The notes under the pieces were generated by a model. It saw nothing but the letters and a program-made list of their open reading frames with translations, ran no database searches and was not told the origin of the DNA. A stretch of 64,000 bases of DNA, taken from Escherichia coli (GTDB lineage Bacteria > Pseudomonadota > Gammaproteobacteria > Enterobacterales > Enterobacteriaceae). The number at the start of each line of letters is the position of its first letter. Positions within the stretch are counted from its first letter, which is position 1. The position numbers and the translations under genes were made by a program. The DNA is taken from NCBI RefSeq assembly GCF_016903815.1, contig NZ_CP069973.1; one strand, 5' to 3'. Below are positions 3-34,500 of this stretch, in pieces.

Positions 3-641
3 ACTCGCACCTTTTCGCTGGGCCTGGCGGGGAGCTTTGCCGGACGTATTGGCAGTGGTATGTTGCCCTTTATGACGCCGGTTTTCCTGCAAATTGGCCT
101 TGGCTTCTCACCGTTTCATGCCGGACTGATGATGATCCCGATGGTGCTTGGCAGCATGGGGATGAAGCGGATTGTTGTACAGGTGGTGAATCGCTTTGGT
201 TATCGTCGGGTACTGATAGCGACCACGCTGGGTCTGTCGCTGGTCACCCTGTTGTTTATGACTACCGCTCTGTTGGGCTGGTACTACGTTTTGCCGTTCG
301 TCCTGTTTTTACAAGGGATGGTCAACTCGACCCGTTTCTCCTCCATGAACACCCTGACGCTGAAAGATCTCCCGGACAATCTGGCGAGCAGCGGCAATAG
401 TCTGCTGTCGATGATTATGCAATTGTCGATGAGTATCGGCGTCACCATCGCCGGGCTGTTGCTGGGACTTTTTGGTTCGCAGCATGTCAGCGTCGACAGC
501 GGCACCACACAAACCGTCTTTATGTACACCTGGCTTAGCATGGCGTTTATCATCGCCCTTCCGGCGTTCATCTTTGCCAGAGTGCCGAACGATACGCATC
601 AAAATGTAGCTATTTCGCGGCGAAAAAGGAGCGCGCAATGA
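3..641 (+). CDS. mdtD: MFS transporter MdtD, C-terminal part (5' end outside window)
   Basis: Open frame from window edge; hydrophobic multi-TM translation; 4-nt overlap with downstream baeS as in the mdtABCD-baeSR operon. Confidence 0.8.
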
Positions 642-2041
642 AGTTCTGGCGACCCGGTATTACCGGCAAACTGTTTCTGGCGATTTTCGCCACCTGCATT
701 GTCTTGCTGATCAGTATGCACTGGGCGGTGCGTATCAGTTTTGAGCGTGGCTTTATTGATTACATCAAGCATGGTAATGAACAGCGATTACAACTGTTAA
801 GTGATGCGCTTGGCGAGCAGTATGCGCAGCATGGCAACTGGCGCTTCCTGCGCAACAATGATCGCTTTGTCTTTCAGATCTTGCGTTCATTTGAACACGA
901 TAATTCGGAAGATAAACCCGGCCCGGGTATGCCGCCGCACGGCTGGCGTACCCAGTTCTGGGTGGTCGATCAAAACAACAAAGTGCTGGTTGGTCCGCGA
1001 GCGCCGATTCCACCTGACGGTACACGGCGACCCATTCTGGTCAACGGTGCGGAAGTGGGTGCGGTGATTGCCTCCCCTGTTGAGCGACTGACCCGCAATA
1101 CTGATATCAATTTCGATAAACAACAGCGGCAAACCAGCTGGCTGATTGTTGCTCTGGCAACGTTACTCGCGGCACTCGCTACCTTTCTGCTGGCGCGTGG
1201 TTTGCTGGCACCGGTAAAACGGCTGGTGGACGGCACGCACAAACTGGCGGCGGGCGATTTCACTACCCGCGTAACGCCCACCAGTGAAGATGAACTGGGC
1301 AAACTGGCGCAAGACTTCAACCAGCTTGCCAGCACGCTGGAGAAAAACCAGCAAATGCGGCGCGATTTTATGGCCGATATTTCTCACGAACTGCGTACGC
1401 CATTAGCGGTGCTGCGCGGTGAACTGGAAGCCATTCAGGATGGCGTGCGTAAATTCACGCCGGAGACGGTGGCGTCTTTACAGGCGGAGGTCGGTACACT
1501 GACCAAACTGGTTGACGATCTCCATCAGTTGTCGATGTCTGATGAAGGCGCTCTCGCCTATCAAAAAGCACCGGTAGATTTGATCCCACTGCTGGAAGTG
1601 GCGGGCGGCGCATTTCGCGAACGATTCGCCAGCCGTGGCCTGAAACTGCAATTTTCCCTGCCAGACAGTATTACCGTATTTGGCGATCGCGACCGTTTAA
1701 TGCAGTTATTCAATAACTTACTGGAAAACAGCCTGCGCTACACTGACAGCGGCGGTAGCCTGAAAATCTCTGCCGGGCAGCACGACAAAACGGTGCGACT
1801 GACCTTTGCCGACAGCGCGCCGGGCGTCAGTGACGATCAGCTACAAAAATTGTTTGAACGTTTTTATCGCACCGAAGGTTCCCGCAACCGAGCCAGCGGC
1901 GGTTCCGGGCTGGGGCTGGCGATTTGCCTGAACATTGTTGAAGCACATAATGGTCGCATTATTGCTGCCCATTCGCCTTTTGGCGGGGTAAGCATTACAG
2001 TAGAGTTACCGCTGGAACGGGATTTACAGAGAGAAGTATGA
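638..2041 (+). CDS. baeS: Envelope-stress sensor histidine kinase BaeS
   Basis: 467 aa; N-terminal TM segments, HAMP-like region, H-box (ISHELRTPL) and HATPase motifs (GGSGLGLAI). Confidence 0.9.
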
Positions 2042-2760
2042 CCGAGTTACCAATCGACGAAAACACACCGCGTATTTTGATCGTGGAAGATGAACCGAAG
2101 CTGGGACAGTTGCTCATTGATTATCTGCGTGCTGCGAGCTATGCGCCGACGCTTATCAGCCACGGCGATCAGGTACTGCCGTATGTGCGCCAGACACCAC
2201 CGGATCTGATCCTGTTGGATCTGATGCTCCCTGGCACCGATGGCTTGACGCTGTGCCGGGAAATTCGTCGTTTTTCTGACATTCCTATCGTGATGGTGAC
2301 GGCAAAAATAGAAGAGATCGACCGCCTGCTCGGACTGGAGATTGGCGCAGATGATTATATCTGTAAGCCGTACAGCCCACGGGAAGTGGTAGCGCGCGTC
2401 AAAACCATTTTGCGCCGTTGCAAACCGCAGCGTGAGTTGCAGCAACAGGATGCTGAAAGCCCGTTGATTATCGACGAAGGTCGTTTTCAGGCTTCATGGC
2501 GCGGTAAAATGCTTGACCTGACGCCTGCGGAATTTCGTCTGCTGAAAACGCTCTCTCATGAACCAGGAAAAGTGTTCTCCCGCGAGCAATTGCTCAATCA
2601 TCTTTATGACGACTACCGCGTAGTAACCGACCGCACCATCGACAGCCACATTAAAAACCTGCGCCGCAAGCTGGAATCTCTCGACGCCGAACAGTCCTTT
2701 ATCCGTGCCGTTTACGGCGTCGGTTACCGCTGGGAAGCCGACGCCTGCCGCATCGTTTAA
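2038..2760 (+). CDS. baeR: Response regulator BaeR (OmpR family)
   Basis: 240 aa; receiver domain ([17 protein letters not shown]) plus winged-helix C-terminus; translationally coupled to baeS. Confidence 0.9.
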
Positions 2761-2939
2761 CATTTTTACCTGCCGGAGAAGGCATTCACGCCGCATCCGG
2801 CAACATAATCCCACGCATGGTCAGCAAACTGACATTATCTCTCCGCCCTGGCAGGCACCAGAAAATCGCTCATACTTTAATCGGTAAACAGTCCTTTTAG
2901 ATGCTGTTTTCGATACGCAATTTCAATCAAGGAGTCATT

Positions 2940-3272
2940 ATGGCTGGTTGGTTTGAACTCAGTAAAAGCAGTGATAATCAATTTCGGTTTGTGCTAAAAG
3001 CGGGCAATGGTGAGACTATCCTTACCAGCGAGCTGTATACCTCAAAAGCCTCTGCGGAAAAGGGCATCGCGTCGGTGCGTAGCAACAGCCCGCAAGAAGA
3101 ACGCTATGAGAAAAAAACGGCAAGCAACGGCAAATTCTATTTCAATCTGAAAGCCGCTAATCATCAAATTATCGGCTCCAGCCAGATGTACGCCACCGCG
3201 CAATCTCGTGAAACCGGAATTGCCTCCGTTAAAGCCAATGGCACAAGCCAGACGGTGAAAGACAATACGTAA
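2940..3272 (+). CDS. yegP: UPF0339 family protein YegP
   Basis: Start chosen at MAGWFELSK with GGAG RBS; two tandem repeats in the protein; expected position after baeR. Confidence 0.8.
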   Translation: MAGWFELSKSSDNQFRFVLKAGNGETILTSELYTSKASAEKGIASVRSNSPQEERYEKKTASNGKFYFNLKAANHQIIGSSQMYATAQSRETGIASVKANGTSQTVKDNT

Positions 3273-3419
3273 TTACGATGCCGGGCGTGGGTTGTTGGCG
3301 TCCGGCGCTTTACCAGCTCCCCCCTACAGCGCTACAATGCCCGCCCTTAAAGTGGGGGCACTCCCCTGGCCGCTTCATCAGGTGAAGCGGATCTGACCTG
3401 TCATCAGAACGAGAGAATT

Positions 3420-4781
3420 ATGTTTAAACCGGAACTCCTTTCCCCGGCGGGAACGCTGAAAAATATGCGTTACGCTTTCGCTTATGGCGCAGATGCTGTT
3501 TATGCGGGCCAGCCGCGTTACTCCCTGCGTGTGCGCAACAACGAATTTAACCACGAAAATCTTCAGCTCGGCATCAATGAAGCCCACGCGCTGGGGAAAA
3601 AGTTTTATGTCGTGGTCAACATTGCACCGCACAACGCCAAGCTGAAAACCTTTATCCGTGACCTGAAACCGGTGGTGGAAATGGGGCCGGATGCGCTGAT
3701 TATGTCTGATCCAGGGCTGATTATGCTGGTGCGCGAGCACTTCCCTGAAATGCCGATCCATCTCTCAGTACAGGCTAACGCCGTGAACTGGGCGACGGTG
3801 AAATTCTGGCAGCAAATGGGTCTGACCCGCGTGATCCTCTCTCGCGAACTGTCACTGGAAGAGATTGAAGAGATCCGCAATCAGGTGCCAGATATGGAGA
3901 TCGAAATCTTCGTTCACGGCGCGCTGTGCATGGCCTACTCCGGTCGCTGCCTGCTCTCTGGCTATATCAACAAGCGCGACCCGAACCAGGGCACCTGCAC
4001 CAACGCCTGCCGCTGGGAGTATAACGTCCAGGAAGGGAAAGAAGATGACGTCGGCAACATCGTACACAAGTACGAACCGATTCCGGTGCAAAACGTTGAA
4101 CCGACGCTGGGGATCGGCGCACCAACCGACAAAGTGTTTATGATCGAAGAAGCCCAGCGTCCGGGCGAGTATATGACCGCGTTTGAAGATGAGCACGGCA
4201 CTTACATCATGAACTCGAAAGATCTGCGCGCCATCGCCCATGTTGAACGCCTGACCAAAATGGGCGTGCATTCGCTGAAAATCGAAGGCCGTACCAAATC
4301 TTTCTACTATTGCGCACGCACCGCGCAGGTTTACCGTAAAGCTATCGATGACGCAGCTGCGGGAAAACCATTCGATACCAGCCTGCTGGAAACCCTGGAA
4401 GGTCTGGCGCATCGTGGCTATACCGAAGGTTTCCTGCGTCGTCATACTCACGACGATTATCAGAACTACGAATACGGTTATTCAGTTTCTGACCGCCAGC
4501 AGTTTGTTGGTGAGTTTACCAGTGAGCGCAAGGGCGACCTCGCGGCGGTAGCGGTGAAAAATAAATTCTCCGTTGGCGACAGCCTTGAGCTGATGACGCC
4601 GCAAGGGAACATTAACTTTACCCTTGAGCACATGGAAAACGCCAAAGGCGAAGCAATGCCGGTCGCACCGGGCGATGGTTATACTGTGTGGATCCCGGTG
4701 CCGCAGGATCTTGAGCTAAATTACGCGCTGCTGATGCGTAATTTCTCCGGGGAAACCACGCGTAACCCCCACGGTAAGTGA
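3420..4781 (+). CDS. yegQ: Peptidase U32 family protein YegQ (tRNA hydroxylation, TrhP)
   Basis: 453 aa; U32-family features incl. conserved Cys-rich segment; synteny. Confidence 0.85.
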   Translation: MFKPELLSPAGTLKNMRYAFAYGADAVYAGQPRYSLRVRNNEFNHENLQLGINEAHALGKKFYVVVNIAPHNAKLKTFIRDLKPVVEMGPDALIMSDPGLIMLVREHFPEMPIHLSVQANAVNWATVKFWQQMGLTRVILSRELSLEEIEEIRNQVPDMEIEIFVHGALCMAYSGRCLLSGYINKRDPNQGTCTNACRWEYNVQEGKEDDVGNIVHKYEPIPVQNVEPTLGIGAPTDKVFMIEEAQRPGEYMTAFEDEHGTYIMNSKDLRAIAHVERLTKMGVHSLKIEGRTKSFYYCARTAQVYRKAIDDAAAGKPFDTSLLETLEGLAHRGYTEGFLRRHTHDDYQNYEYGYSVSDRQQFVGEFTSERKGDLAAVAVKNKFSVGDSLELMTPQGNINFTLEHMENAKGEAMPVAPGDGYTVWIPVPQDLELNYALLMRNFSGETTRNPHGK

Positions 4782-10465: not shown

Positions 10466-11656
10466 TTAATTGCTGTTAACCGAGGTGACCAGATTTGCCA
10501 GGTATTTATCGGTAATACGCTGGCGCAGGGTCAGGTTTTCAAGAGGAGGCACCGGTGTATAGTCGTAGTCGATATACAGTTTTCCGGCCTTGAGGGTTTC
10601 CGCATCGTTGGATTCTTCGCTGAACCAGCAGGTCGCATCCACGATATAGCCGTTTGTTTTCAGCTCACGGAATTTGGCATTGATGCCGTCAACGATGTCG
10701 CGAATCAGCGTTGCGGTGATGGGCTTGTCCACCGCCCACATGTGCGCCTCAGCCATCGTGTCGGCCATCACCTGCGCGGTGCGGGTGTAGTTTTCAAAGA
10801 GGAACAGCGGGTCATCAGAGCAGGTACGGTTACCCCAGAATCGGAAACCGTCGCGGCGAATCAGCGTAGTGACGCCTGACTCGTTAAGCAGGTCAGCATC
10901 GGTGCCGGACTCCTGCAAATCCCAGAATACAGATGCGCTGATGCCGGTAACACCGTTTACCCCGACGTTGGACAGCGTTTTATGCCAGCCCTGCTCCTGG
11001 TCGATTTTAGCGCGCAGACCCAGCGCACGGGCGGTGGCATACGCGGTGGCGGTGGTACTGGTGACCGTATCCCATGCGAGGAAATCCGGCCAGATGACCA
11101 TCAGCTCACGCTGGCTGAAATTCTGGCGGTAGGCTTTCACCTCGGAAATGGTCTTACAGCTCCATGCGCTGATATATCCGAAAGCGCGCAGCTTCTGACA
11201 GACGGATGCCAGTGCAACTGCCACCTCTTTGGTATCCAGTCCCGGCACACCGAGAATACGCGGTTTAACACCGGTTACCGACTCCGCCGCCAGCAGGGCT
11301 TTTAGTCCGGTGTACTGACCGTTTTCGTCGGTGGTGCCGATGATATTGGAAACGGTCTGCGCGAGTTTCGTTTCCTCGTCGTCGCCGGTGCCGTCTTCCA
11401 CACGCACGACTACGGTGACCGGTTTTGACTGGTCAGCGATGGCCTGCAACGACGCCGCCAGCGTGCCTTTTTTACCGGCCTTTGCAATTGCGCTCTGCAC
11501 ATTGGTAATCAGCACCGGTTTATTGAGGGGGAAGATTTCCGCATCCGCATCGCTGGCCGTGCAGACCATGCCGACAATGGCGGTGGATACGGTGGAAATG
11601 ACGCGGGTGCCGTCGTTAATCTCCAGCACCTGCACGCCATGATGATAGTCGCTCAT
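10466..11656 (-). CDS. FI: Tail sheath protein gpFI
   Basis: 396 aa; size and position. Confidence 0.9.
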   Translation of the reverse strand: MSDYHHGVQVLEINDGTRVISTVSTAIVGMVCTASDADAEIFPLNKPVLITNVQSAIAKAGKKGTLAASLQAIADQSKPVTVVVRVEDGTGDDEETKLAQTVSNIIGTTDENGQYTGLKALLAAESVTGVKPRILGVPGLDTKEVAVALASVCQKLRAFGYISAWSCKTISEVKAYRQNFSQRELMVIWPDFLAWDTVTSTTATAYATARALGLRAKIDQEQGWHKTLSNVGVNGVTGISASVFWDLQESGTDADLLNESGVTTLIRRDGFRFWGNRTCSDDPLFLFENYTRTAQVMADTMAEAHMWAVDKPITATLIRDIVDGINAKFRELKTNGYIVDATCWFSEESNDAETLKAGKLYIDYDYTPVPPLENLTLRQRITDKYLANLVTSVNSN

Positions 11657-11985
11657 CCGTTTAACTCCGTGGTTAATGGGTGCAACTATTTTCTGTTGGG
11701 CAGTGCATGAGACGCCATTTGACCTGGCTGGTCAGTGGATGAAACAACAGATAAAGAAAATGCGGGCAATTCGCCCGCCTGTCCTGATTTGCACACACTC
11801 ATTTTCCGACTGACAGTTTACATAGCCCAAAAGTTATCAAATCTGACAGTCTGCTTTGAGCAAGAAGCGGACATTTGCCTGTCAGGGTATATGCCGCTCT
11901 GTGGTTATTATCCAGAATCAATAATTCATCTGAGTTGGATGACATATAAAACATAGTTACTCCATGAATAACCATTAGCAGATTA

Positions 11986-12579
11986 TCAATTATGTAAATC
12001 TTTTGTTTTATGTTCTTTAGCGTATTGTGACAACAAATGGCTATAGCGTTTAAGCAAAATATTAGAAAGATTAAGCTCATTCATGAAGTGTTCTTCTAAT
12101 AAGTAACCATCAATATCAACTTTAATATCATTACCACTTTTCATCTTCTGTAACGTAGATTTCACACGCTCCAGCAGGATGCTTTGCTCATGGTAATAGT
12201 CCATAAGAAGAGTAACATCCTCTTTATCAAGCTTACTTAATTCGCTGAAGTAGGATTTAAACACTTTATCAGTCTGGTTTAATGCAATCTGTAAGCGAGG
12301 CCCCCCTAATGATTTGACATTAATGGCAAAAGGCTCGCCAACAAAATGCTCCGAATTTTCGTCAAAGCCAATATATCTCGTTTTATCAAGAAAAGTGAGA
12401 GCGCGATGGTTATTAGCGATTTCATATGCAAACATTGTTCTGATACTGTCCCTCTCAGCCTCCATGCTTATATCATCACGGTGATTTGTATAAAATATAT
12501 TTCCAACAAAGAGAACCATAGCAAGAATCACTGAACTTGCCTCCCAGTTAATATTTTTAAATCGTCGCTTAGTAAACAT
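11986..12579 (-). CDS. AT-rich cargo gene at the Z/fun locus: membrane-anchored protein of unknown function
   Basis: 197 aa; N-terminal TM helix (SSVILAMVLFVGNIFY) then charged soluble domain; lies between G and FI where P2 carries Z/fun; visibly AT-rich. Confidence 0.6.
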   Translation of the reverse strand: MFTKRRFKNINWEASSVILAMVLFVGNIFYTNHRDDISMEAERDSIRTMFAYEIANNHRALTFLDKTRYIGFDENSEHFVGEPFAINVKSLGGPRLQIALNQTDKVFKSYFSELSKLDKEDVTLLMDYYHEQSILLERVKSTLQKMKSGNDIKVDIDGYLLEEHFMNELNLSNILLKRYSHLLSQYAKEHKTKDLHN

Positions 12580-12800
12580 ACCGCACCTTAATTATCAAAA
12601 ATATTCCTTCAGTGTTATCTGGTTAGCCTAAACCAAGTCATTAAAGTCCGCAGGATATCATATACATAAAATGTATTGATTAGAATTTGCACTAATAAAA
12701 TAATGCTTTACTGAAATCTACTCCAGACATAGAGCGGCCTGTCAGATTAGGCTTTACTCTGTGCCATAGATATGTAATCTCACACCAGAGCTTATACAAC

Positions 12801-13328
12801 TTATTGCGGCATTTCCGGCCATTCAGGATTTACAGGATCCACACGGCTGACCAGAACGCTGTAGCGTTCCCATGACTCCAGTCGTGCACGTTCCTCATCC
12901 GTCGCCATATTCAGCCTGACAGCGCGTTCCAGTGGCTGAATAACGCTTTCCGCTTCGGAAAGTAATGCGGCCTTTTGTGATTCTGCCTGTTGTTGCTGTT
13001 CATCTGCCGTATAAATCCGTTTAACCACAGCACCATCCTTAAACATCCATTTACCTGAGTCGTCAGCACGTCGGTTGGAGGTAATATCAGGAACCTCAAC
13101 AACGCTAAAACCTTCAGGGTTAAGCGTTGAAGCATCTCTGGTGATAGCGACAATAATATTATTTTCATCGTAAACAATCTTTATTGTGTCTGGCTGAAAG
13201 TTCTTCACTTCCTCATACCAGTTTTTTCCATCCTCAGAGTAAAGCCAGATAACTCCGTGTTTCTTTGTTAACTCATACTGTTCCAGTGTTTTAGCGTTAC
13301 CCGCTTTTATGTTCTTTAAGTGCATCAT
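12801..13328 (-). CDS. G: Tail fibre assembly protein gpG
   Basis: 175 aa; immediately downstream of H. Confidence 0.85.
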
Positions 13329-13329
13329 A

Positions 13330-15351
13330 TTAAACGCTCGCTACATTATACCAGGTGCCATTTATATACTTTTGAACGGGTCTGTAATAAACGCCCGCTA
13401 TATTATCGGCAGAGTTGGACCCTGTATCCTGAACATTAATACCAGACAATACATGACCTGACGGGCACTGGAAATTCCATGTTTGCCAGTTGTTCACTCC
13501 ATAATATTGCTGTGAACCAAGTCGAACATCTTTCACATATCTGGAATCAAAATTGCCATAGTTGCCAGGAATAACTTGCGAGCCACAAAGCCAGTTACCG
13601 TTATTATCCATGTACGCCTGACCATCGGTGCCATTGGCTGTCCTTGAGTTATTAATCATGTAGATGCCAAATTGCTTGTTCCCCAGTCCACCTATCATGA
13701 ACTTGCGGTCAGCGTGATTCTGGCGAAGCAACGCCTGAGCGCTATCAGTGTTAACTATATTTTTCCCAAAGATAGCGTTGTTATCGCGCATCTGAATCCA
13801 CATACCATTACTGCTGTTAATAGCAAAACGGTCTGAAAGCGTCTCCCCTGAAACATTAAGGCCACGCCCCATCGAAACAGCGCCAGTAGCGTTATTAATC
13901 CATAATGGCCTTAATCCGTTATAAGTCCCCATGTTGTCACCGGAGTTTGTCAACATGAAGTATGTATTTGAACCATCATTACGAATAAAGAATCCGTAAT
14001 TACCATAAGCAATACGTAGGCCGTTTGCTGATTTTGATATGACTTCGCCATTTACAATGGCATTGACAAGAACATACAAAGCATCCCATTTAAGATTCAT
14101 CAGGTCTTTTGTTGTAGTACTCTGGCGGCTTCTCCATTTGAAATATTCATTGCCGTTATCCCCCGTTTCAAACCACATGAATGAATCAGTGTCACCATCG
14201 GCATCATTTTTAAATCCAATCTTCGCCCAGTCAGTATTTCGAATCCAGGCAAGGATTGAGTCGTTTTCAAAAGTAAGTCCACCGGACAAGGTATCGCCAT
14301 TTTTTTGCACGGCGTTCCCGGCTCGGTTTACCGTTTCCTGTAAACCGAGATATTCGATAACGGCGGCAACGGTCGATTTAGCCAGAATATCCCGCCCGAC
14401 TTTTGTCAGGGTTGCCAGGCTGGCAACATCATTCCCCATAAAATACGGAAACCTGTCTGCCGCAGTAGCAAGCCCCGCCAGTGCCGTCAGGGTGGCATCT
14501 TTCGGTTGCTTCCCCGCAAGCGCATTAGTCATGGTGGTAGCAAAATTCGGGTCATTGCCCAGCGCCGCCGCCAGCTCGTTCAGCGTATTCAGTGCGTCAG
14601 GCGACGAGTCTACAAGGGCGGCAATCGCGGCCATAACGAAAGCCGTGTTTGCGATCTGAGTATTATTCGTTCCCTGTCGCGCAGTTGGCGTCGTTGGCGT
14701 TCCGGTCAGTGCAGGGCTGTTTAATGGCGCTTTCTTGTTCGTTTCATCCATTACCGTCTTAACGGCTTTCGGCGTTGCAGCCAGTGTTTCAGACGTGCTG
14801 TTGGTCGCACTGCTTAACTGAGTAAAACCTTTTGCGGTCAGCGAGGCGTCAGGGTGACGTCGTGACTGTTCATGTTCTGCAATTTTGTCATCAACGTAAT
14901 CCTGCGTCGCCATCACCGTTGTGGTGTCGATGGTCAGATCCACTGAGGCCACACTGCTGACGATAATGACCATGCGGCAGGTCTGCGAACGTCCTGAGCC
15001 TTCGGCAAGGGCTGGCTTATAACTTTCGGCCATGTTCGCCACGGCAATTAACGTTCCTGCATCATCGTACAGGCCAAGCTCACGCATCCAGAAACCGCCC
15101 ACCTCCGGCGGAATAACCAGCTCTGCGATAATATAATTACTGTTTCGTTTGTCCTGGCTGATTTTGTTCAGCGCATGTCGCCAGACTTCGTGGATAAGCC
15201 CGGTCTGTCCGGCATCCGGGACAGGCAATTTACCACCGCCATCCCCGACGGCCATCGTGGTAATGTTGACCTTCCGCCCTCCCGGCGCGGTTGCCGCTGC
15301 CAGCTTTGCTGCACCGGCAGTGGTGATAACGGTTTTGAATTTTGTGCTCAT
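13330..15351 (-). CDS. H: Tail fibre protein gpH
   Basis: 673 aa; conserved N-terminus ([21 protein letters not shown]), Ser/Thr/Asn-rich distal domain. Confidence 0.9.
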
Positions 15352-17857: not shown

Positions 17858-18931
17858 ATGAGTACTTACTTTTTCTCGTCAGAAACAATGAAAGAATTGT
17901 TCAAAGATTATCTGGTCTTTTTGAACACGCTGACTCCCAGCACAAACTTTGAATCAAACAGAAACAAAATAATTGCTCAAGCAATAAACTTCATTTCCGA
18001 AAACCCTGAAGATTGGGACAAAAAATCCCAGTACAACATTGCTATGATTGGCGACACCTTTAAAAGTTTCTTAAGAGAAAAGGGGGAAGATAACAACAGC
18101 ATCAACCTTATATTCACTTGCTTTTTTAGATTTATCATTGAACCAAGCATTCTCTCTCCGGAAATAGAGTCTCACTTTTCACCACTAAGAACCATCAAGG
18201 ATTTTGCTCTGTATAACTATAATGAATTCGATGAGCGGAGCAGAGCACAGATAGACTTTTCTCTTAGAGAACTGCCATTAGCAATGGTTAAAGAAGTTTT
18301 AAGCTCCAGCAATGTTGACACATATAAAAAATACATTGATAGTTTAAACGAAGGGCGTCAATTTTTCGAAAAGTGCGACTCCTTCTTAAAGGAGCAACAT
18401 GCCAAAATAGAGTCAATTAAAGAGTCATTAAAAGGGTATGAGGTCGCATTTAATTTTGTTGGATTGTTTGATGGCTTTAATTCACTTGGCAAAAAGAAAG
18501 AAAGTGAAATCATGCTATCAAGAATAATTCTTATCATCTTGGCTATAATCATTCCCTCCCCGCTGATATACTATGGAATGCATAAATTACCAACTCTCGA
18601 AACGACAAATGCTGCCACATATTTTATGTCAGCACTACCTTTTGCATCAGTTACATTGATTTTCATGTATTACTTTAGAGTTGTACTGATAAATCATATA
18701 TCGTTACGAACTCAGATTATGCAAATAGAACTCAGAAAGAGCCTTTGTCAGTTCATTCAGAGTTATAGCGACTATTCCTCAGAGATAAGGAAAAACAATC
18801 CGGAAGCGCTTTCAAAATTCGAAGACGTAGTATTTTCAAACATCATGCTATCCGATGATAAGATACCATCTACATTTGATGGCATTGAGCAAATAGCATC
18901 GTTAATCAATTCATTAAAAAATGGAAAGTAA
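17858..18931 (+). CDS. AT-rich cargo gene at the orf30 locus: protein with two C-terminal TM helices, unknown function
   Basis: About 357 aa from MSTYFFSSETMKELF; soluble N-terminal domain, two hydrophobic helices (IMLSRIILIILAIIIPSPLIYYG; AATYFMSALPFASVTLIFMYYF); opposite strand to flanking tail genes; own terminator. Confidence 0.65.
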   Translation: MSTYFFSSETMKELFKDYLVFLNTLTPSTNFESNRNKIIAQAINFISENPEDWDKKSQYNIAMIGDTFKSFLREKGEDNNSINLIFTCFFRFIIEPSILSPEIESHFSPLRTIKDFALYNYNEFDERSRAQIDFSLRELPLAMVKEVLSSSNVDTYKKYIDSLNEGRQFFEKCDSFLKEQHAKIESIKESLKGYEVAFNFVGLFDGFNSLGKKKESEIMLSRIILIILAIIIPSPLIYYGMHKLPTLETTNAATYFMSALPFASVTLIFMYYFRVVLINHISLRTQIMQIELRKSLCQFIQSYSDYSSEIRKNNPEALSKFEDVVFSNIMLSDDKIPSTFDGIEQIASLINSLKNGK

Positions 18932-28210: not shown

Positions 28211-28596
28211 ACATCGCCGCCTGCGGGCGGCTTTTTTACATCCCGTCATCACGCCCTCACACGCTCACCACCGCACAAAACACCCCTTAGACACACCAAC
28301 GCCCCGACGCACAATCTAAACGCCATCACGACGCGCTCAGACGCTGAAAAAATAAAATCAGCACCACCGCCAGCGCGCAGTGCTTTCCCCGCCTCGCCCG
28401 CCCGCTTCATGAGACGGTTTTGATGCAGTCGCATTTGTCTTGAAAACCAAGTAACTAGACGGCTATCAGTCATAGACAGGCAGCTTTTTTTTTCATACAT
28501 TTTGTATGCAAAATCATGCACGCCTAATCAAGACGAATCTTCGTTCACAGCCATTATGCATGAATGCGAAAATTACTGTTCGAAAAAGGATAATTT
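28211..28596. other. cos / packaging region (by position after Q); also holds the promoter and RBS of the GHKL gene
   Basis: Non-coding stretch after the portal gene where P2 carries cos; exact cos ends not identified. Confidence 0.35.
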
Positions 28597-30021
28597 ATGG
28601 TTTCGTCAAACGTCAAAATAGCAGCATTTCCAGCAAAAAGATTCTTTGTTGAGATGCTCACCCGAGATATTGAGTTGTCTGACTCAATTCTAGATTTACT
28701 AGATAACTGCCTAGATGGTGTATTAAGAAAAAACAATTTCACTCCAGAGCAAACCTTCGGTAAATCAGACGTTTACAAGGGTTACTATGCTCATATTGAA
28801 TTTGATGAGAATAGTTTCAGAATAACTGATAATTGCGGAGGTATTCCAGCAAAACTTGCGGAAAGCTATGCGTTTAGGTTGGGTAGACCTGCAGAACGTG
28901 AGGCGGATGATCTCCCGACAATTGGTGTATATGGTATCGGAATGAAACGAGCGATTTTCAAAATGGGGACATCTGCTCAGATTTTAAGCAAAACTGAAAA
29001 CGAACAATTTTCAGTTACCATTTCTCCTGAATGGATGGCTGATGATGAAAACTGGTCTTTGGAGTTAGAGCGAAATAATGTTGACTTAAACGAAACAGGC
29101 GTCAGCATCCAAATTAACAATTTAAGGAAAGATATTAAAGCATCCCTATCAAAGGATCGTGGCTTTGAAGAAGTTTTGATTAATATCATAGCAAATCATT
29201 ATAGTTTAATCATTAAAAAAGGGTTTGAGGTTAAAGTAAATGGATGTATTGTTAAGCCAAATAGCACCAATTTAATATTTGATGAAGAAGCCATTAAAGG
29301 CAATACCGACGGCATTGCTCCTTATGTATATAAAAATAATTCAAATGGAGTTTCAATTAAAGTTGCAGTTGGATTTTATCGTAACTTGCCTAGTGAGGAA
29401 GAAGAAGAGAATTTATTATCAGGCCGTTCCACAACAGAAAAAGCTGGTTGGACAATTATATGCAATGATCGTGTAGTCCTACATGCGGATAAAACCAAGC
29501 TTACAGGTTGGGGAGAAGCTGGAGTTCCACAATATCATACTCAATTCATCGGAATTTCTGGTGTTGTTATTTTCACATCATCAAATGCTGAATTACTACC
29601 TATCACTACAACTAAACGAGGTGTTGATGGTAACTCTGAGCTATATCTTTCTACTAAAGATTTTATGCGCGAGGGTTTAAAATTCTTCACGGACTTTACC
29701 AACAAATGGAAAAGTAACGCAGAGGAAAGAAAGCAAATTATTAATACTGCATCCAATATGGTTTCAACAACTGAGGTCGACTTTACTAAATCAATTCCTA
29801 GAGAAAACTGGTCGAACGTTCGACGTTCAATAGGAGGAGAAGTTTTCAAACCGAAGCTACCAATGCCTCGGGATTCGGATCCATTACGTCAGATAAAATT
29901 TAGCCGTAGACATAGTGAAATAAAACTGGTGTCAGAGTTTCTCTTTGATGATGCAACTCAACCACCAACAGAGGTTGGTCAATATTGTTTTGATGAATTT
30001 CTAAAAAAGGCTAAACAATGA
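28597..30021 (+). CDS. GHKL-superfamily (MORC/MutL/Hsp90-like) ATPase, cargo gene at the tin/old locus
   Basis: 474 aa; Bergerat-fold motifs read directly: N-box DLLDNCLDG, G1 box DNCGGIP, G2 box GVYGIGMK; AAGGA RBS; AT-rich. Confidence 0.75.
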   Translation: MVSSNVKIAAFPAKRFFVEMLTRDIELSDSILDLLDNCLDGVLRKNNFTPEQTFGKSDVYKGYYAHIEFDENSFRITDNCGGIPAKLAESYAFRLGRPAEREADDLPTIGVYGIGMKRAIFKMGTSAQILSKTENEQFSVTISPEWMADDENWSLELERNNVDLNETGVSIQINNLRKDIKASLSKDRGFEEVLINIIANHYSLIIKKGFEVKVNGCIVKPNSTNLIFDEEAIKGNTDGIAPYVYKNNSNGVSIKVAVGFYRNLPSEEEEENLLSGRSTTEKAGWTIICNDRVVLHADKTKLTGWGEAGVPQYHTQFIGISGVVIFTSSNAELLPITTTKRGVDGNSELYLSTKDFMREGLKFFTDFTNKWKSNAEERKQIINTASNMVSTTEVDFTKSIPRENWSNVRRSIGGEVFKPKLPMPRDSDPLRQIKFSRRHSEIKLVSEFLFDDATQPPTEVGQYCFDEFLKKAKQ

Positions 30022-31010
30022 GTACTGGCGGAAGCATCCCATATCATTTGCGGCAAAACAAAGCCATTGAAAGGAATCTATTTATAGAATCCCTAAGAAG
30101 GTTAAACAATTATACAAACATATCCGAATATGTATATATAGGATTCGGGGGGCCTTTCCTCGAAGATTTCAAACAAATTCATAATTTGTTAAAAGTGACT
30201 AAAATGATATCTATCGAAGGAGATAAAAATGTCCATTGCCGACAACAGTTTAACAAACCATTATCTTGCATAAATTTGGGTGATACCCCAGAAATGAGCG
30301 GAGACTTCATCAATCGCTATAACTTTGACGATAAAACGATCATATGGTTAGATTATGCAACGCCTTCAGACTTAAATGCTCAGTTAAATGAAATAGTTAA
30401 TTTGGTTACAAAGCTAAAACCCAAAGACATTTTTAAGATCACTTTAAATGCAAACCCTGAAGCCTTGGGAAAAAACCCGAGCGAACGAGATCCAAGAGCA
30501 TATAGATTTCAAAAGATAAACGATATTTTGACTCAAGATTTTTTACCACCGAATGCAGTAGTCGAAGATGTCGGATTTAAAAAATACCCTATGCTCCTAG
30601 TTAATGCTATGAGACGCGCAATAGGGCATGGATTAAAAGGTCGAAATGACATAAGAATACATCCATTAACTTCTTTCGTTTATAAAGATGGCCAACAGAT
30701 GGTTACTTTAACAGCTATCGTTCTTGAAAACACTGATACAGAAGAAGCTAAATTTATTGATAATTCCAGAATCAAGAATTGGCCATTTTATGATGGGAAG
30801 TGGAGTAATCCTAAAAATATAAACGTCCCTGCTATGTCTTTAAAAGAAAGGATACATATTGAATCTTTATTACCCGAAGCTTCAGTAGAAAACATCCATG
30901 AAACTCTAGGGTTTTACATTGGCTCCACTCCTTCTGGAGCCAACTCCGATCTAAGTAATTTTATCGAATACTACAAGGTCGTTCCATGGTATTCAAAGAT
31001 TCTTTTTTAA
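30018..31010 (+). CDS. Uncharacterised 330-aa protein, translationally coupled to the GHKL ATPase
   Basis: Start overlaps the GHKL stop by 4 nt; no motif recognisable by eye; AT-rich. Confidence 0.65.
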   Translation: MSTGGSIPYHLRQNKAIERNLFIESLRRLNNYTNISEYVYIGFGGPFLEDFKQIHNLLKVTKMISIEGDKNVHCRQQFNKPLSCINLGDTPEMSGDFINRYNFDDKTIIWLDYATPSDLNAQLNEIVNLVTKLKPKDIFKITLNANPEALGKNPSERDPRAYRFQKINDILTQDFLPPNAVVEDVGFKKYPMLLVNAMRRAIGHGLKGRNDIRIHPLTSFVYKDGQQMVTLTAIVLENTDTEEAKFIDNSRIKNWPFYDGKWSNPKNINVPAMSLKERIHIESLLPEASVENIHETLGFYIGSTPSGANSDLSNFIEYYKVVPWYSKILF

Positions 31011-32118
31011 CTTTTAAACAGTAATCGTATAAAGGTAATAGCATAGCCTCAGCCACAAGCGGACTAACGCTATTACCTATCTGTCTAAAACTGTGCCACT
31101 TTGTAGGATGAAAACGGAACCAATCAGGAAACCCTTGTAACCTAGCTGCTTCACGAGGAGTTATCACCCTAGCTTGAGTAGGGTGAATTGGCCTAACGGC
31201 CTGATAACTCCCCTTGTCACTTCCTGTACCTGCTCTCAAAGTTGGACAAAAACCGTTAGGATTGAGTCGTTGTGATCTCGAAATCTTATCAGTTTCACCG
31301 AATGAAAGTTGTCTATATCTCCTGAGCACTTCCTCCGAATGAGCTGTACCTAAAAAGCCAGATACCAATCCTTTCTTTAAATTTTGAATGGATTCTGCAT
31401 CACCTACACCATTTGGTATATGTCCCCAAAGTCGCTCATAATAGTAACCATCTTTATCCATTTTTACTGAACGCCAGCCTTGCTCCTCTGTCTGCCACTC
31501 TTTTCTTATAGTTCGCGGTAATCCGTAGAGTGCATCTTTGACAAGAGTCTGCTCTATTATATTTTTAGGAAAAAAATCAGATTCTTTTAACTGATTAATA
31601 AAACCTCTTTTAAAACCCATGAAAAATATTCGTGTCCGTGTCGTAGGTGCTCCATAATTTGAAGCATTAACCCTTATTGGATGTAATAAACAATAGCCAT
31701 CTCTAACTAAAGAAAATGCTTCTTCTCTTACTGGATTATATTTCTCACCCATAATTCCTGGAACATTCTCTGCCAAAAAACAAATTGGAGATAACTCACT
31801 TACCAACCTAAAAAAATGAATATACAATTCATTTCTTGTATCATTGGCATTCCTTTTTCCAATGGTGCTAAATCCTTGGCAAGGTGGACCACCAATAACG
31901 CAATCAATGTCCTTTACAGCACATGCAGACAAAATATCTTTTGCTGTAAGCGAGCAGACATCCCGATGCAAATGTGTTGATTTTGGGAAGTTTAACTCAT
32001 GTGAAAAAATAGCATGTTTATCCAGTTCAACAGCTCCAACCAAGTTGAAACCGGCTCGAGTTGCCCCTAAGCTTAAACCGCCAACTCCAGAGAATAAATC
32101 AACTACATTCATATTCAA
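30961..32118 (-). CDS. DNA (cytosine-5)-methyltransferase
   Basis: 385 aa; motif I DLFSGVGG, motif IV GGPPCQGFS, motif VI ENVPG, C-terminal QIGNSVSP; 3' end overlaps the partner gene by 50 bp convergently. Confidence 0.85.
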   Translation of the reverse strand: MNMNVVDLFSGVGGLSLGATRAGFNLVGAVELDKHAIFSHELNFPKSTHLHRDVCSLTAKDILSACAVKDIDCVIGGPPCQGFSTIGKRNANDTRNELYIHFFRLVSELSPICFLAENVPGIMGEKYNPVREEAFSLVRDGYCLLHPIRVNASNYGAPTTRTRIFFMGFKRGFINQLKESDFFPKNIIEQTLVKDALYGLPRTIRKEWQTEEQGWRSVKMDKDGYYYERLWGHIPNGVGDAESIQNLKKGLVSGFLGTAHSEEVLRRYRQLSFGETDKISRSQRLNPNGFCPTLRAGTGSDKGSYQAVRPIHPTQARVITPREAARLQGFPDWFRFHPTKWHSFRQIGNSVSPLVAEAMLLPLYDYCLKVKKESLNTMERPCSIR

Positions 32119-32394
32119 ATAACCATGCTAAAGATTCAACTAACGATCATGTATTCTATCATGACATCAGTCATTGTCTAAAGCCATAGTTGCTTTAAAA
32201 GTTGAATCAAACTAACAATCCCTTAATGTGAGAAAGTGATTTTTCGGATGATTAATAGCCACGCTCCAGCCCCCTGAAGTTCCCAATTTGCTGCTGATGG
32301 TCATTTTGAAAAACTCAAAGCAAGTGAACGACAGTTACTCTCTCCAAGCTCCGACCATCCAAACGAACAATGTAATCCTATGCAATTATATCAG

Positions 32395-34500
32395 CTAGCC
32401 ACTTATCTTCTCTTGCCGAGTAAACATTGGCAAATAATGCTTTAATGTGTTTCTAAACACTCTGACGACCTCTGGGTCACTCCATTCGATAACACCGTCA
32501 TCAACCAGATTAAGCACTGCTGCGGCGTGCTCAGAAGGTGTGGGAGCCGGTAACGAAGTATCACCACCAGTGAGCTTTCCACAGTTATTGACAGGACTCC
32601 GAGGCGCGGCGATGCCGCTTTTTAAAGTCAAAGGCTCAACGACCGGAACTTTCGGCACAATGCGCCAGTCCGTCGTTCTGGTGATATGAATATGACGCGC
32701 GCCGAGATGCGGCGCGTAAATGCCGACCACTCTCTCGACTTCTTCCTCGTACTCGTTAACGTCATCCGACGGGCTACGGGCAACCCTGACAGTCTGACAA
32801 TCGCGCGGGACATTTGCCCCACCCTGCGCGCTGATATACAACGCAAAATCACCACTGTCTGCGGCAGCGCGAGCAGCCTCGACGCGTTCGTCAAACTCAT
32901 CAGCAATACTGACGCCGCGAGGCAATTTGCGTAGTTCACGGTAAGCCCCCATTGTCGGCAGTCCAACCGTTTTAAATTGCGGGATGCGCCACGTTGACGC
33001 CCATGCAGTAACAGCCGCGGCAGTATCTTTCAGAGGTCTGCCGGTATCGTTATCGAGCTGACCATCCAGTGCATAGCCGTCGATGTTTTTTGAGATGTAT
33101 TTCGCGATATACCCCGCAGCACCGCCCCGGTTAAGGTGTTTTGCCTGAAAACGGTTTCGCGCGGCTCCTCTTTCGTCGCCATCCTCTTTGAGCGCATAGC
33201 GACGCATGATTTCGATAATCTGGTTACGCTGGCGCGGATTACAAAAAAGCATCATATGCCAGTGCGGCGTTCCGTCGTGGTGTGGCTCGACGACACGCAA
33301 ACCGTAGACCTGTAAATCATTATCCTTGAATGCCGTGCGCATCAGGCTCCAGATACGGCAGAGATAACGCTGCGCATCCTTTGGATTAAATGCCTCATCG
33401 TTCCAGCCGTGATTTAGCTGGACGGTTTTACTTTCGCCTTTTCTGACCTGACGTGTCGGGTGATACTTTGACGGCGCGGTCAGCGTGATAAACATCCCCA
33501 CATCACCCTCTGCTGCGGCGTAACGCTCAATACCGGCAATGGTGTTCATCAGCTCCATCCGGCGAATTTCAGGATTAGAAATACTGCCCATCACCTTACT
33601 GATAAGGTCGATGCGCTCGCCGGTTTCCCTGTTTTCGAGATCACACGATTTAAGAAATTCCAGATTTGCCTGGCGGCGTGCACGCACATCACGAATGGCA
33701 TGTTTACTGGCATAAGGAGAACGGTCTTTATTGACCTCCCCGACAGCAATCAGTAACGCCTCATGCCAGCGCATACGCTGGCCTTTAAGCTGATGAGTCC
33801 ACCACTCATCGTTAAACAGACGGGCAATGGCAGAATATGCCTGCCTCGTGGTCATCTGCCCTTTACGGTATTTTTTCCAGTAGAGAGGGGATATATTGAA
33901 AGCACGTGCAGCGCCAGCAACATGACCATAGAGGTGAGCCTGCGCCTCATCCGTAAACAGCGATTCTTTTTCGCCATGCGCATCCACCCAGGCATCGCTG
34001 AGTTCCTCATACATCATGAAAAGCTGCGATGAGATACGGGCAGCAAACTTTTTCAGCTCCTTGTCATTCATTCCCGGCAGGCGCGCATAGTGGTCACGCT
34101 CTGCCAGAAACAGTAACGACGCGTCGGTGTTCATTTCATGGCGCTGATTCACACGCTCAATGCGCGGCCATAAACGGCGCTGAAAAGTGGATGTGAGGAA
34201 ATAAAACCCGTGCACCGGGCTTTTATTGCGCCGGATGTAGTCATAGCGTGAAGTAAACAGCGAACGCAAAAAGTAAGGCAGGCGGTTAATCGTGGATAAA
34301 ACACCTTGCACCTGACGCATCTCGTCACGTGTAAGGGGTCTTTCGCGCCCGACAGCCTCGCGTGGCGCGCTCCATGCATAAGCACCGGTAAACGTCTTAC
34401 CGGTGCCTGCAGCAAATGCTGACGGAGGGACAAAACGCCCGGAGGCTTTAATGGCCATATGAGCCAAAAGCCTCTGAACAACGCTTGCTGAGTTGCTCAA
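32395..34500 (-). CDS. A: Replication initiation endonuclease gpA
   Basis: 701 aa in-frame ORF; position at end of early operon; true start may be upstream. Confidence 0.8.
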   Translation of the reverse strand: MSNSASVVQRLLAHMAIKASGRFVPPSAFAAGTGKTFTGAYAWSAPREAVGRERPLTRDEMRQVQGVLSTINRLPYFLRSLFTSRYDYIRRNKSPVHGFYFLTSTFQRRLWPRIERVNQRHEMNTDASLLFLAERDHYARLPGMNDKELKKFAARISSQLFMMYEELSDAWVDAHGEKESLFTDEAQAHLYGHVAGAARAFNISPLYWKKYRKGQMTTRQAYSAIARLFNDEWWTHQLKGQRMRWHEALLIAVGEVNKDRSPYASKHAIRDVRARRQANLEFLKSCDLENRETGERIDLISKVMGSISNPEIRRMELMNTIAGIERYAAAEGDVGMFITLTAPSKYHPTRQVRKGESKTVQLNHGWNDEAFNPKDAQRYLCRIWSLMRTAFKDNDLQVYGLRVVEPHHDGTPHWHMMLFCNPRQRNQIIEIMRRYALKEDGDERGAARNRFQAKHLNRGGAAGYIAKYISKNIDGYALDGQLDNDTGRPLKDTAAAVTAWASTWRIPQFKTVGLPTMGAYRELRKLPRGVSIADEFDERVEAARAAADSGDFALYISAQGGANVPRDCQTVRVARSPSDDVNEYEEEVERVVGIYAPHLGARHIHITRTTDWRIVPKVPVVEPLTLKSGIAAPRSPVNNCGKLTGGDTSLPAPTPSEHAAAVLNLVDDGVIEWSDPEVVRVFRNTLKHYLPMFTRQEKISG

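Follow-up and report, generated by a model that had tools for sequence, protein, structure and literature searches.

A C5-cytosine methyltransferase, a MORC-like ATPase and a methyltransferase-fold partner as a putative methylation-gated cassette in a P2-like prophage of Escherichia coli

In the 64,000-nucleotide stretch of Escherichia coli DNA analysed here (RefSeq assembly GCF_016903815.1, contig NZ_CP069973.1; hereafter the window), a gene for a C5-cytosine DNA methyltransferase (MTase; 30961..32112, minus strand) meets tail to tail a pair of plus-strand genes, which encode a MORC-like GHKL ATPase (28597..30021) and a protein of the family PF20553 (30018..31010). The locus raises the question of whether the three genes act together and, if so, whether the overlap of their 3' ends is part of how they work. 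Comparison with related loci indicates that the three proteins very probably form a functional triad, and that the overlap is, judged by its absence or variation in those loci, a local packing variant and not a conserved feature of the system.

The MTase is a member of the Dcm family. The open reading frame (ORF) extends to 32118, where TTG is an alternative start, but the in-frame ATG at 32112, chosen by PGAP, is likelier and gives a protein of 383 amino acids. It matches PF00145 (E=1.7e-59, far beyond chance) and TIGR00675 (E=2.5e-51, above its cut-off). An earlier note on this DNA had named motifs I, IV and VI (DLFSGVGG, GGPPCQGFS and ENVPG), and all three are present together with TRTRIFF (QxRxR-like), RVITPREAARLQGFPD and GNSVSP, which completes the family set of motifs I, IV (with the catalytic Cys of PCQ), VI, VIII, IX and X. 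Two further statements of that note hold as well: the ORF coordinates place the MTase on the strand of the neighbouring replication gene A and the ATPase pair on the opposite strand, and no vsr-like gene is adjacent, as tblastn with six Vsr queries found no Vsr homologue anywhere in the window. Its best PADLOC scores are with Type II MTase models (E=5e-100), and all its matches there are to generic MTase models (MTase_II, DruM, DrmMII). The PDB entry 3G7U matches almost the full length (residues 1-364, E=2e-154), target-recognition region included, so a structural template already exists for the methylase arm; this entry is probably the lambdoid-prophage version found in O157:H7. The target-recognition region is conserved throughout an alignment of 39 cassette MTases. 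This is unusual for methylases of restriction-modification (R-M) systems and suggests a single shared mark, and we infer that the enzyme writes 5-methylcytosine (5mC) in DNA at one conserved motif.

The ATPase (plus strand, 474 amino acids) has intact DxxxN, DNCGG, GxYGIGMK and TTTKRG motifs. Its ATP-binding GHKL motifs at the N-terminus precede an S5-fold domain in which a Lys is conserved; this is the architecture of MORC and paraMORC proteins. Model-based fold searches place MORC3, MORC2 and SMCHD1 as its structural neighbours, and at the level of sequence the match to MORC3 in the PDB is weak (E=0.03). PHROGs lists both this protein and its PF20553 partner as being of unknown function.

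The partner gene (plus strand, 330 amino acids) begins with an ATG that overlaps the stop codon of the ATPase gene (ATGA), and by this arrangement is translationally coupled to it. Its match to PF20553 (Methyltransf_35; E=4.6e-85) covers profile positions 2-307 of 309, and all 50 of 50 homologues match the family too. Fold searches with a structural model give a class I S-adenosylmethionine (SAM) methyltransferase fold with Trm1 as the nearest relative, followed by RsmD and RlmI. These are N- and C-methylating RNA enzymes and not specifically O-methyltransferases, despite the family name 'putative O-methyltransferase'. A profile search of PDB sequences with the partner returned only noise. The conserved positions include G44/G45 in a Gly-rich loop, E67 and D112, which end strands 2 and 4 respectively, and an invariant N-terminal motif, Y9-R12-N14-K15-R19; they fit an active enzyme, and the partner may be a SAM-dependent methyltransferase.

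The evidence that these proteins work together comes from other genomes. Relatives of the PF20553 protein, taken from one genome per species, gave 56 loci, to which three were added through MTase homologues; 53 loci could be scored. They span more than 10 phyla (Planctomycetes, Dehalococcoidia, Nitrospirota, Verrucomicrobia, Kiritimatiellae, Latescibacterota, Poribacteria, Bacteroidota and many Proteobacteria among the taxa) and include one archaeon (Methanoregulaceae). The GHKL gene lies directly upstream of the PF20553 gene in every one of the 53, and a C5 MTase is present in 42, in 40 of which it belongs to the same subfamily as that of the window, with full-length identities of 39-63%, or 83% for the near relative in Enterobacter. 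The most frequent arrangement (20 loci) is an operon on one strand in the order MTase, GHKL and PF20553, and in 16 co-directional loci the distance from the MTase stop to the GHKL start is only -14 to +15 bp. When the search was reversed and started from three MTase homologues, all three had a GHKL neighbour, two of them in a PF20553 pair and one as a longer GHKL paralogue. Pairwise identity matrices are correlated most strongly between GHKL and PF20553 proteins (r=0.76) and also between MTase and GHKL (r=0.46) and MTase and PF20553 (r=0.37); for each of the latter two, none of 2000 permutations reached the observed value.

The surroundings of the triad are informative in two further respects. 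Vsr is a recurrent fourth gene (about 16 loci), and its recurrence beside the triad argues for genuine 5mC in DNA; the enterobacterial prophage versions are without it. Eight loci have a second, longer GHKL paralogue (546-610 amino acids) beside the MTase, so that one MTase appears to serve two GHKL modules, and in one more locus (L060) a 623-amino-acid paralogue and an MTase stand alone. These paralogues share the GHKL and S5 core but have exchanged C-terminal domains: several are similar to the C-terminal domain of PD-Lambda-5_A (best E=1.7e-23) and one is a HEPN/Hypoth_Ymh domain. At another locus (L014), a second and divergent GHKL-PF20553 pair (11397-13706, minus strand; 26-29% identity) lies on the far side of the single MTase. 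One mark combined with exchangeable ATPase-effector modules is what would be expected of methylation-gated conflict systems, and it agrees with earlier predictions made for MORC/paraMORC operons (PMC2292703) and for a related triad of C5 MTase, GHKL and receiver-like proteins (PMC8011034). The earlier note had suggested that modification could be balanced against a putative restriction or effector module; the link to the ATPase module stands on synteny, coupling and partial co-evolution, and the restriction nuclease does not, as none can be recognised.

The setting in the window is that of phage cargo. GC content falls to about 32-43% between roughly 28430 and 32400, compared with about 50-60% in the flanks, and this low-GC island, delimited by its composition profile and by how the identical E. 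coli 7/2 region is annotated, has cos/portal of a P2-like prophage at one end and its gene A at the other. On the portal side it is bounded by the cos-like 19-mer GTGCTTTCCCCGCCTCGCC (28380..28398), putatively the P2 cohesive end. The ORF table contains exactly three genes in the island and no other plausible ORF of 50 amino acids or more. E. coli strain 7/2 has a chromosomal segment with 100% identity to the 4-kb region, and in its record the cassette is inside a P2-like prophage with the portal gene on one side and the replication endonuclease gene A on the other. The region is carried at at least 99% identity by 45 of 5426 complete E. coli genomes, and a more sensitive DNA search found the cassette in 225 of the 5426 (about 4%), O157:H7 and O111 included. 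The position between gene A and the portal gene/cos is that of P2 defence hotspot #1, a hotspot described earlier and whose tested cargo is mostly defensive (PMC9519451). The best explanation of the island is that its genes are a single three-gene cassette of 3.6 kb, with its own promoter-like elements, carried as lysogenic-conversion cargo in the P2 hotspot.

The same triad is found in other mobile elements. In Enterobacter sp. MGH 24 (L002; 4976-10149, 10221-10757) the cassette is 76% identical in nucleotides, with the identical 50-bp overlap; its host is a P2-family prophage with only 37% identity in gpA and with a DinI-like gene separating the MTase from A. The comparison points to exchange of the cassette between distant P2-like phages at one hotspot. 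Lambdoid prophages of E. coli O157:H7 strain 8368 (L062; 6200-9699) and Enterobacter cloacae carry the triad between the replication genes and the nin/Q region, again in convergent arrangement and with a 33-bp overlap in the O157:H7 version. A Dyadobacter locus, with the triad among small unannotated co-oriented ORFs, is possibly also a prophage. No match was found when the island was compared by megablast with 50,697 phage records. A protein search gave a single phage, the Pf inovirus PfAC20 (Pseudomonas phage, PP058144), with a divergent triad at its left end (280-3711) in the co-directional order GHKL, PF20553 and C5 MTase (36%, 27% and 41% identity) and a second, short cytosine methylase gene.

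Taken together, these observations suggest a methylation-gated self/non-self cassette that resembles an R-M system and is of the paraMORC kind. In the first step the MTase would mark resident DNA with 5mC at one conserved motif, as suggested by catalytic motifs that are intact, a target-recognition region that is conserved and a Vsr gene that recurs. In the second step, by analogy with clamps of the MORC and MutL type, a dimer of the MORC-like ATPase would engage DNA and sense whether the mark is absent or present. In the third step the ATPase would control its obligate PF20553 partner, and the effector function would be a SAM-dependent reaction on nucleic acid and not cleavage. This last step is the least secure and is argued from the fold and the conserved motif positions. 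In the convergent prophage layout, where early phage transcription runs with the MTase and opposes the ATPase pair, the balance could be shifted towards modification during lytic growth. A role for the cassette in defence or conflict is judged to be reasonably probable; the whole chain of steps, as a function deduced from sequences and models, might equally well hold or fail. A bolder version, in which a MORC-type clamp reads a dedicated 5mC mark and drives a methyltransferase-fold effector against unmarked nucleic acid, as a nuclease-free immunity or conflict system and a counterpart, possibly by descent, of the eukaryotic axis of MORC and DNA-methylation silencing, is speculative and we hold it to be doubtful.

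Several observations weigh against the methylation-gated chain. Pfam, PADLOC, NCBIfam and fold searches detect no nuclease domain in any of the three proteins, which leaves 'restriction' without an obvious executor. The substrate and the catalytic competence of the partner are putative; none of its 50 homologues cross-matches another methyltransferase family of Pfam, and neither it nor the ATPase has any match in PADLOC (PADLOC 2023 / PADLOC-DB v2) or NCBIfam scans. The position of the GHKL catalytic base is a nearly invariant Asp (D33) in this ATPase family and not the Glu of MutL, GyrB, Hsp90 and MORC3. MTase clades are swapped relative to the GHKL-PF20553 pair, and the trees are only partly congruent. 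Finally, six cyanobacterial or Parabeggiatoa loci and one acidobacterial locus, all with ample flanks, have the pair inserted between housekeeping genes (NADH dehydrogenase subunits, non-ribosomal peptide synthetase, ALAD), with the nearest several kb free of any C5 MTase, and the pair may thus not be strictly dependent on this MTase.

A hidden nuclease of the PD-(D/E)xK type in the C-terminal parts of the ATPase or its partner was considered and rejected, on weak grounds, as these regions are helical in the models and have no conserved D...(D/E)xK.

A different account gives the central role to the junction itself. The stop codons, read directly, lie at 31008-31010 (TAA, plus strand) and 30961-30963 (TTA on the plus strand, which is TAA for the MTase on the minus strand), so the 3' ends share exactly 50 bp (30961..31010), as the earlier note had it. 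That note had gone on to suggest that antisense RNA from either side could have a balancing effect, and in its strongest form the proposal is that the overlap is a dedicated antisense or transcriptional-interference device, essential to the system, which fixes how much modification there is relative to effector. At the junction neither a terminator-like site nor a structure of unusual stability (z-scores -0.4 and -1.4) was found, and convergent transcripts should therefore collide or overlap; antisense interference between the MTase and the GHKL pair is plausible on these grounds. The absence of a C-protein and of an N-terminal helix-turn-helix on the MTase, as seen in the ORF listing and the MTase alignment, would call for some other mode of control, which such a device could provide. 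The convergent arrangement is moreover found in 18 loci, the window's own counted, 16 of them directly abutting, and the ends overlap in 10 of these 16 and in the O157:H7 version.

The same loci show how little of this geometry is kept. The 3' distances in the 16 abutting loci are -92, -92, -50, -50, -40, -33, -6, -4, -4, -4, 0, 6, 11, 33, 86 and 578 bp, that is, overlaps of 4 to 92 bp beside six loci with gaps of 0 to 578 bp, and in another 20 loci the MTase is upstream on the same strand and in three downstream, an arrangement that includes the Pf inovirus type. Within the overlap the C-terminus of the partner (…PWYSK…) is conserved throughout the family, and the MTase residues encoded there belong to a variable tail after the last conserved motif; the overlap is thus the result of an MTase frame that continues into the adjoining gene. 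Orientation relative to the flanking genes gives a mixed picture: the MTase is co-oriented with its flanks and the ATPase pair is antisense in four mobile-element-like contexts (the P2-like prophage, the Enterobacter and O157:H7 lambdoid prophages and the putative Dyadobacter prophage) but the MTase is co-oriented with its flank in only 6 of 13 other convergent loci. An essential role of the overlap is therefore unlikely, and it is not a conserved element.

The transcription of the MTase bears on the same point. The earlier note had it transcribed with the early operon; the shared strand with gene A stands, and a scan found no terminator between the two genes. Dependence on the early operon is however not required, because the MTase has a promoter-like site of its own (32153..32180, minus strand; TAGACA-16-TGaTAGAAT with a TG-extended -10) about 40 bp upstream of the ATG, and co-transcription is a matter of interpretation. 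The extended -10 is conserved upstream of three other cassettes (L002, L003 and L062), in regions that otherwise cannot be aligned, and is the sole conserved upstream feature in the four cassettes; homology with the Enterobacter cassette stops at 32165, just past it. The spacer of the promoter-like site in the window contains an inverted repeat, ATGAC-TGAT-GTCAT, and a repeated CATGAT, and the repeat is not conserved in the other cassettes.

According to another explanation, the cassette is no defence system but a DNA or RNA modification or counter-defence module, in which two methyltransferases and an ATPase would modify phage and host nucleic acid, for instance to evade host restriction or to reprogramme the lysogen epigenetically. 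Both proteins other than the ATPase do have methyltransferase folds, and with no nuclease found the parts list agrees with this explanation, as do the cyanobacterial pairs without an MTase and the co-orientation of the MTase with phage early genes, which is frequent for orphan MTases of phages. However, in many phyla the triad occurs mostly as an operon of the chromosome with no recognisable prophage around it, and Vsr and R-M genes, such as a NotI-like system, are often next to it. HEPN or PD-Lambda-5_A-like domains, which are characteristic of defence effectors, are found on the GHKL paralogues with which the MTase is shared, and the position in P2 is a hotspot with mostly defensive tested cargo (PMC9519451). 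Such a module is considered improbable. That the MTase is an orphan or part of another system, placed beside an unrelated GHKL module by the clustering of hotspot cargo, is very unlikely: hotspots do gather unrelated genes, the nearby C5 MTase of one locus (L004) does belong to a separate NotI-like R-M system with Vsr, and the tree of the MTases agrees only in part with the pair, but 40 of 53 loci, from more than one domain of life, have a neighbouring MTase of the same subfamily, in many cases with stop and start codons that overlap, and this synteny, the reverse look-up (three of three), the correlated identity matrices, the conserved target-recognition region and Vsr all speak against it.

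The host prophage of the cassette has features that matter for its study. Gene A (32395..34500, minus strand; PF05840, E=1e-122) is truncated at its 3' end at the island junction: its product aligns only to residues 1-698 of the 759-amino-acid gpA of the P2-like phage isolate D8, with three unrelated residues at the end, and it carries the PGAP flag 'missing C-terminus'. The alignment and the flag place the cargo junction inside gene A. Given this truncation the prophage may be replication-defective, which is of importance for any experiment that relies on prophage induction. Further away, a hypothetical gene of 261 amino acids (18146-18931, plus strand) lies antisense among the tail and baseplate genes, between V and a virion morphogenesis gene; it has no match in PADLOC and is possibly the cargo of a second variable spot of P2. 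Relative to strain 7/2, the window has a 27-bp indel at some point from this gene to the terminase.

The cassette is compact, sits in a mostly defensive hotspot and occurs in tractable hosts, the 225 complete E. coli genomes and O157:H7 among them. If it defends, it would add a system with a methyltransferase-fold effector in place of a nuclease and would account for two PHROG families that have no known function. If not, it is a conserved epigenetic module with two methyltransferases, spread by at least three kinds of temperate phage. DNA of carrier strains that contained 5mC written by the cassette would be a target for McrBC and Mrr in K-12 cloning hosts; the mrr deletion needed for PD-Lambda-5 may be compared.

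Classical Type II R-M systems are similar to the cassette in that its MTase scores best against Type II MTase models, and a convergent tail-to-tail layout is known for several R-M pairs. The island contains no endonuclease, and the companions of the MTase are an ATPase and a methyltransferase fold; with no cognate restriction endonuclease beside the MTase the cassette is not a Type II R-M system by definition. No family in PADLOC-DB v2, which includes Mza, DISARM, Druantia and PD-Lambda-5, matches the components other than the MTase. The 3G7U entry, which is so similar to the MTase, is a structural-genomics entry for which the literature searched describes no function, target motif or partner, and the searches gave no paper on PF20553 or on the triad. 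The main text of Rousset 2022 and a 2026 P2/P4 preprint, supplementary tables aside, make no mention of methyltransferase or HATPase cargo. The WASA system of V. cholerae was considered as a match and rejected, as the paper describes a GHKL-Shedu fusion, a different system.

PD-Lambda-5 is a validated prophage system, described as 'compacted RM+Abi', for which the cloning host needed to have mrr deleted (Vassallo et al. 2022, PMC9519451). It is prophage-borne like the cassette, and the C-terminal domain of PD-Lambda-5_A resembles the C-termini of the longer GHKL paralogues that share the MTase subfamily elsewhere. The GHKL and PF20553 proteins of the window have no PADLOC match, however, and the relation is only through paralogues in other genomes. 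The triads of C5 MTase, HATPase_c_3/HEF_HK plus Response_reg_2 (Bellieny-Rabelo et al. 2021, PMC8011034) are alike in having a C5 MTase upstream of a paraMORC-type GHKL protein with a small obligate partner. In those triads the partner is receiver-like and the GHKL protein has a histidine-kinase-like C-terminus, and neither is found in the cassette.

The closest likeness is to the MORC and paraMORC operons of Iyer, Abhiman & Aravind 2008 (PMC2292703), which were predicted to be R-M systems with C5 methylase and Vsr, and whose prokaryotic ATPases were proposed as the source of the eukaryotic MORCs. No experimentally characterised prokaryotic MORC-type ATPase linked to cytosine methylation turned up in the literature searched. 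These operons combine a GHKL and S5 ATPase with a C5 methylase, often with Vsr, and are mobile and sporadic in bacteria and archaea. The cassette family shares this gene neighbourhood of DNA methylases and Vsr. The operons described in 2008 also have SFII helicases and/or endonucleases (RE-fold, HNH, TIR), where the cassette has only its PF20553 protein. On the best reading of these sequences the cassette belongs with the paraMORC-linked, methylation-based systems, among which its putative effector is unusual.

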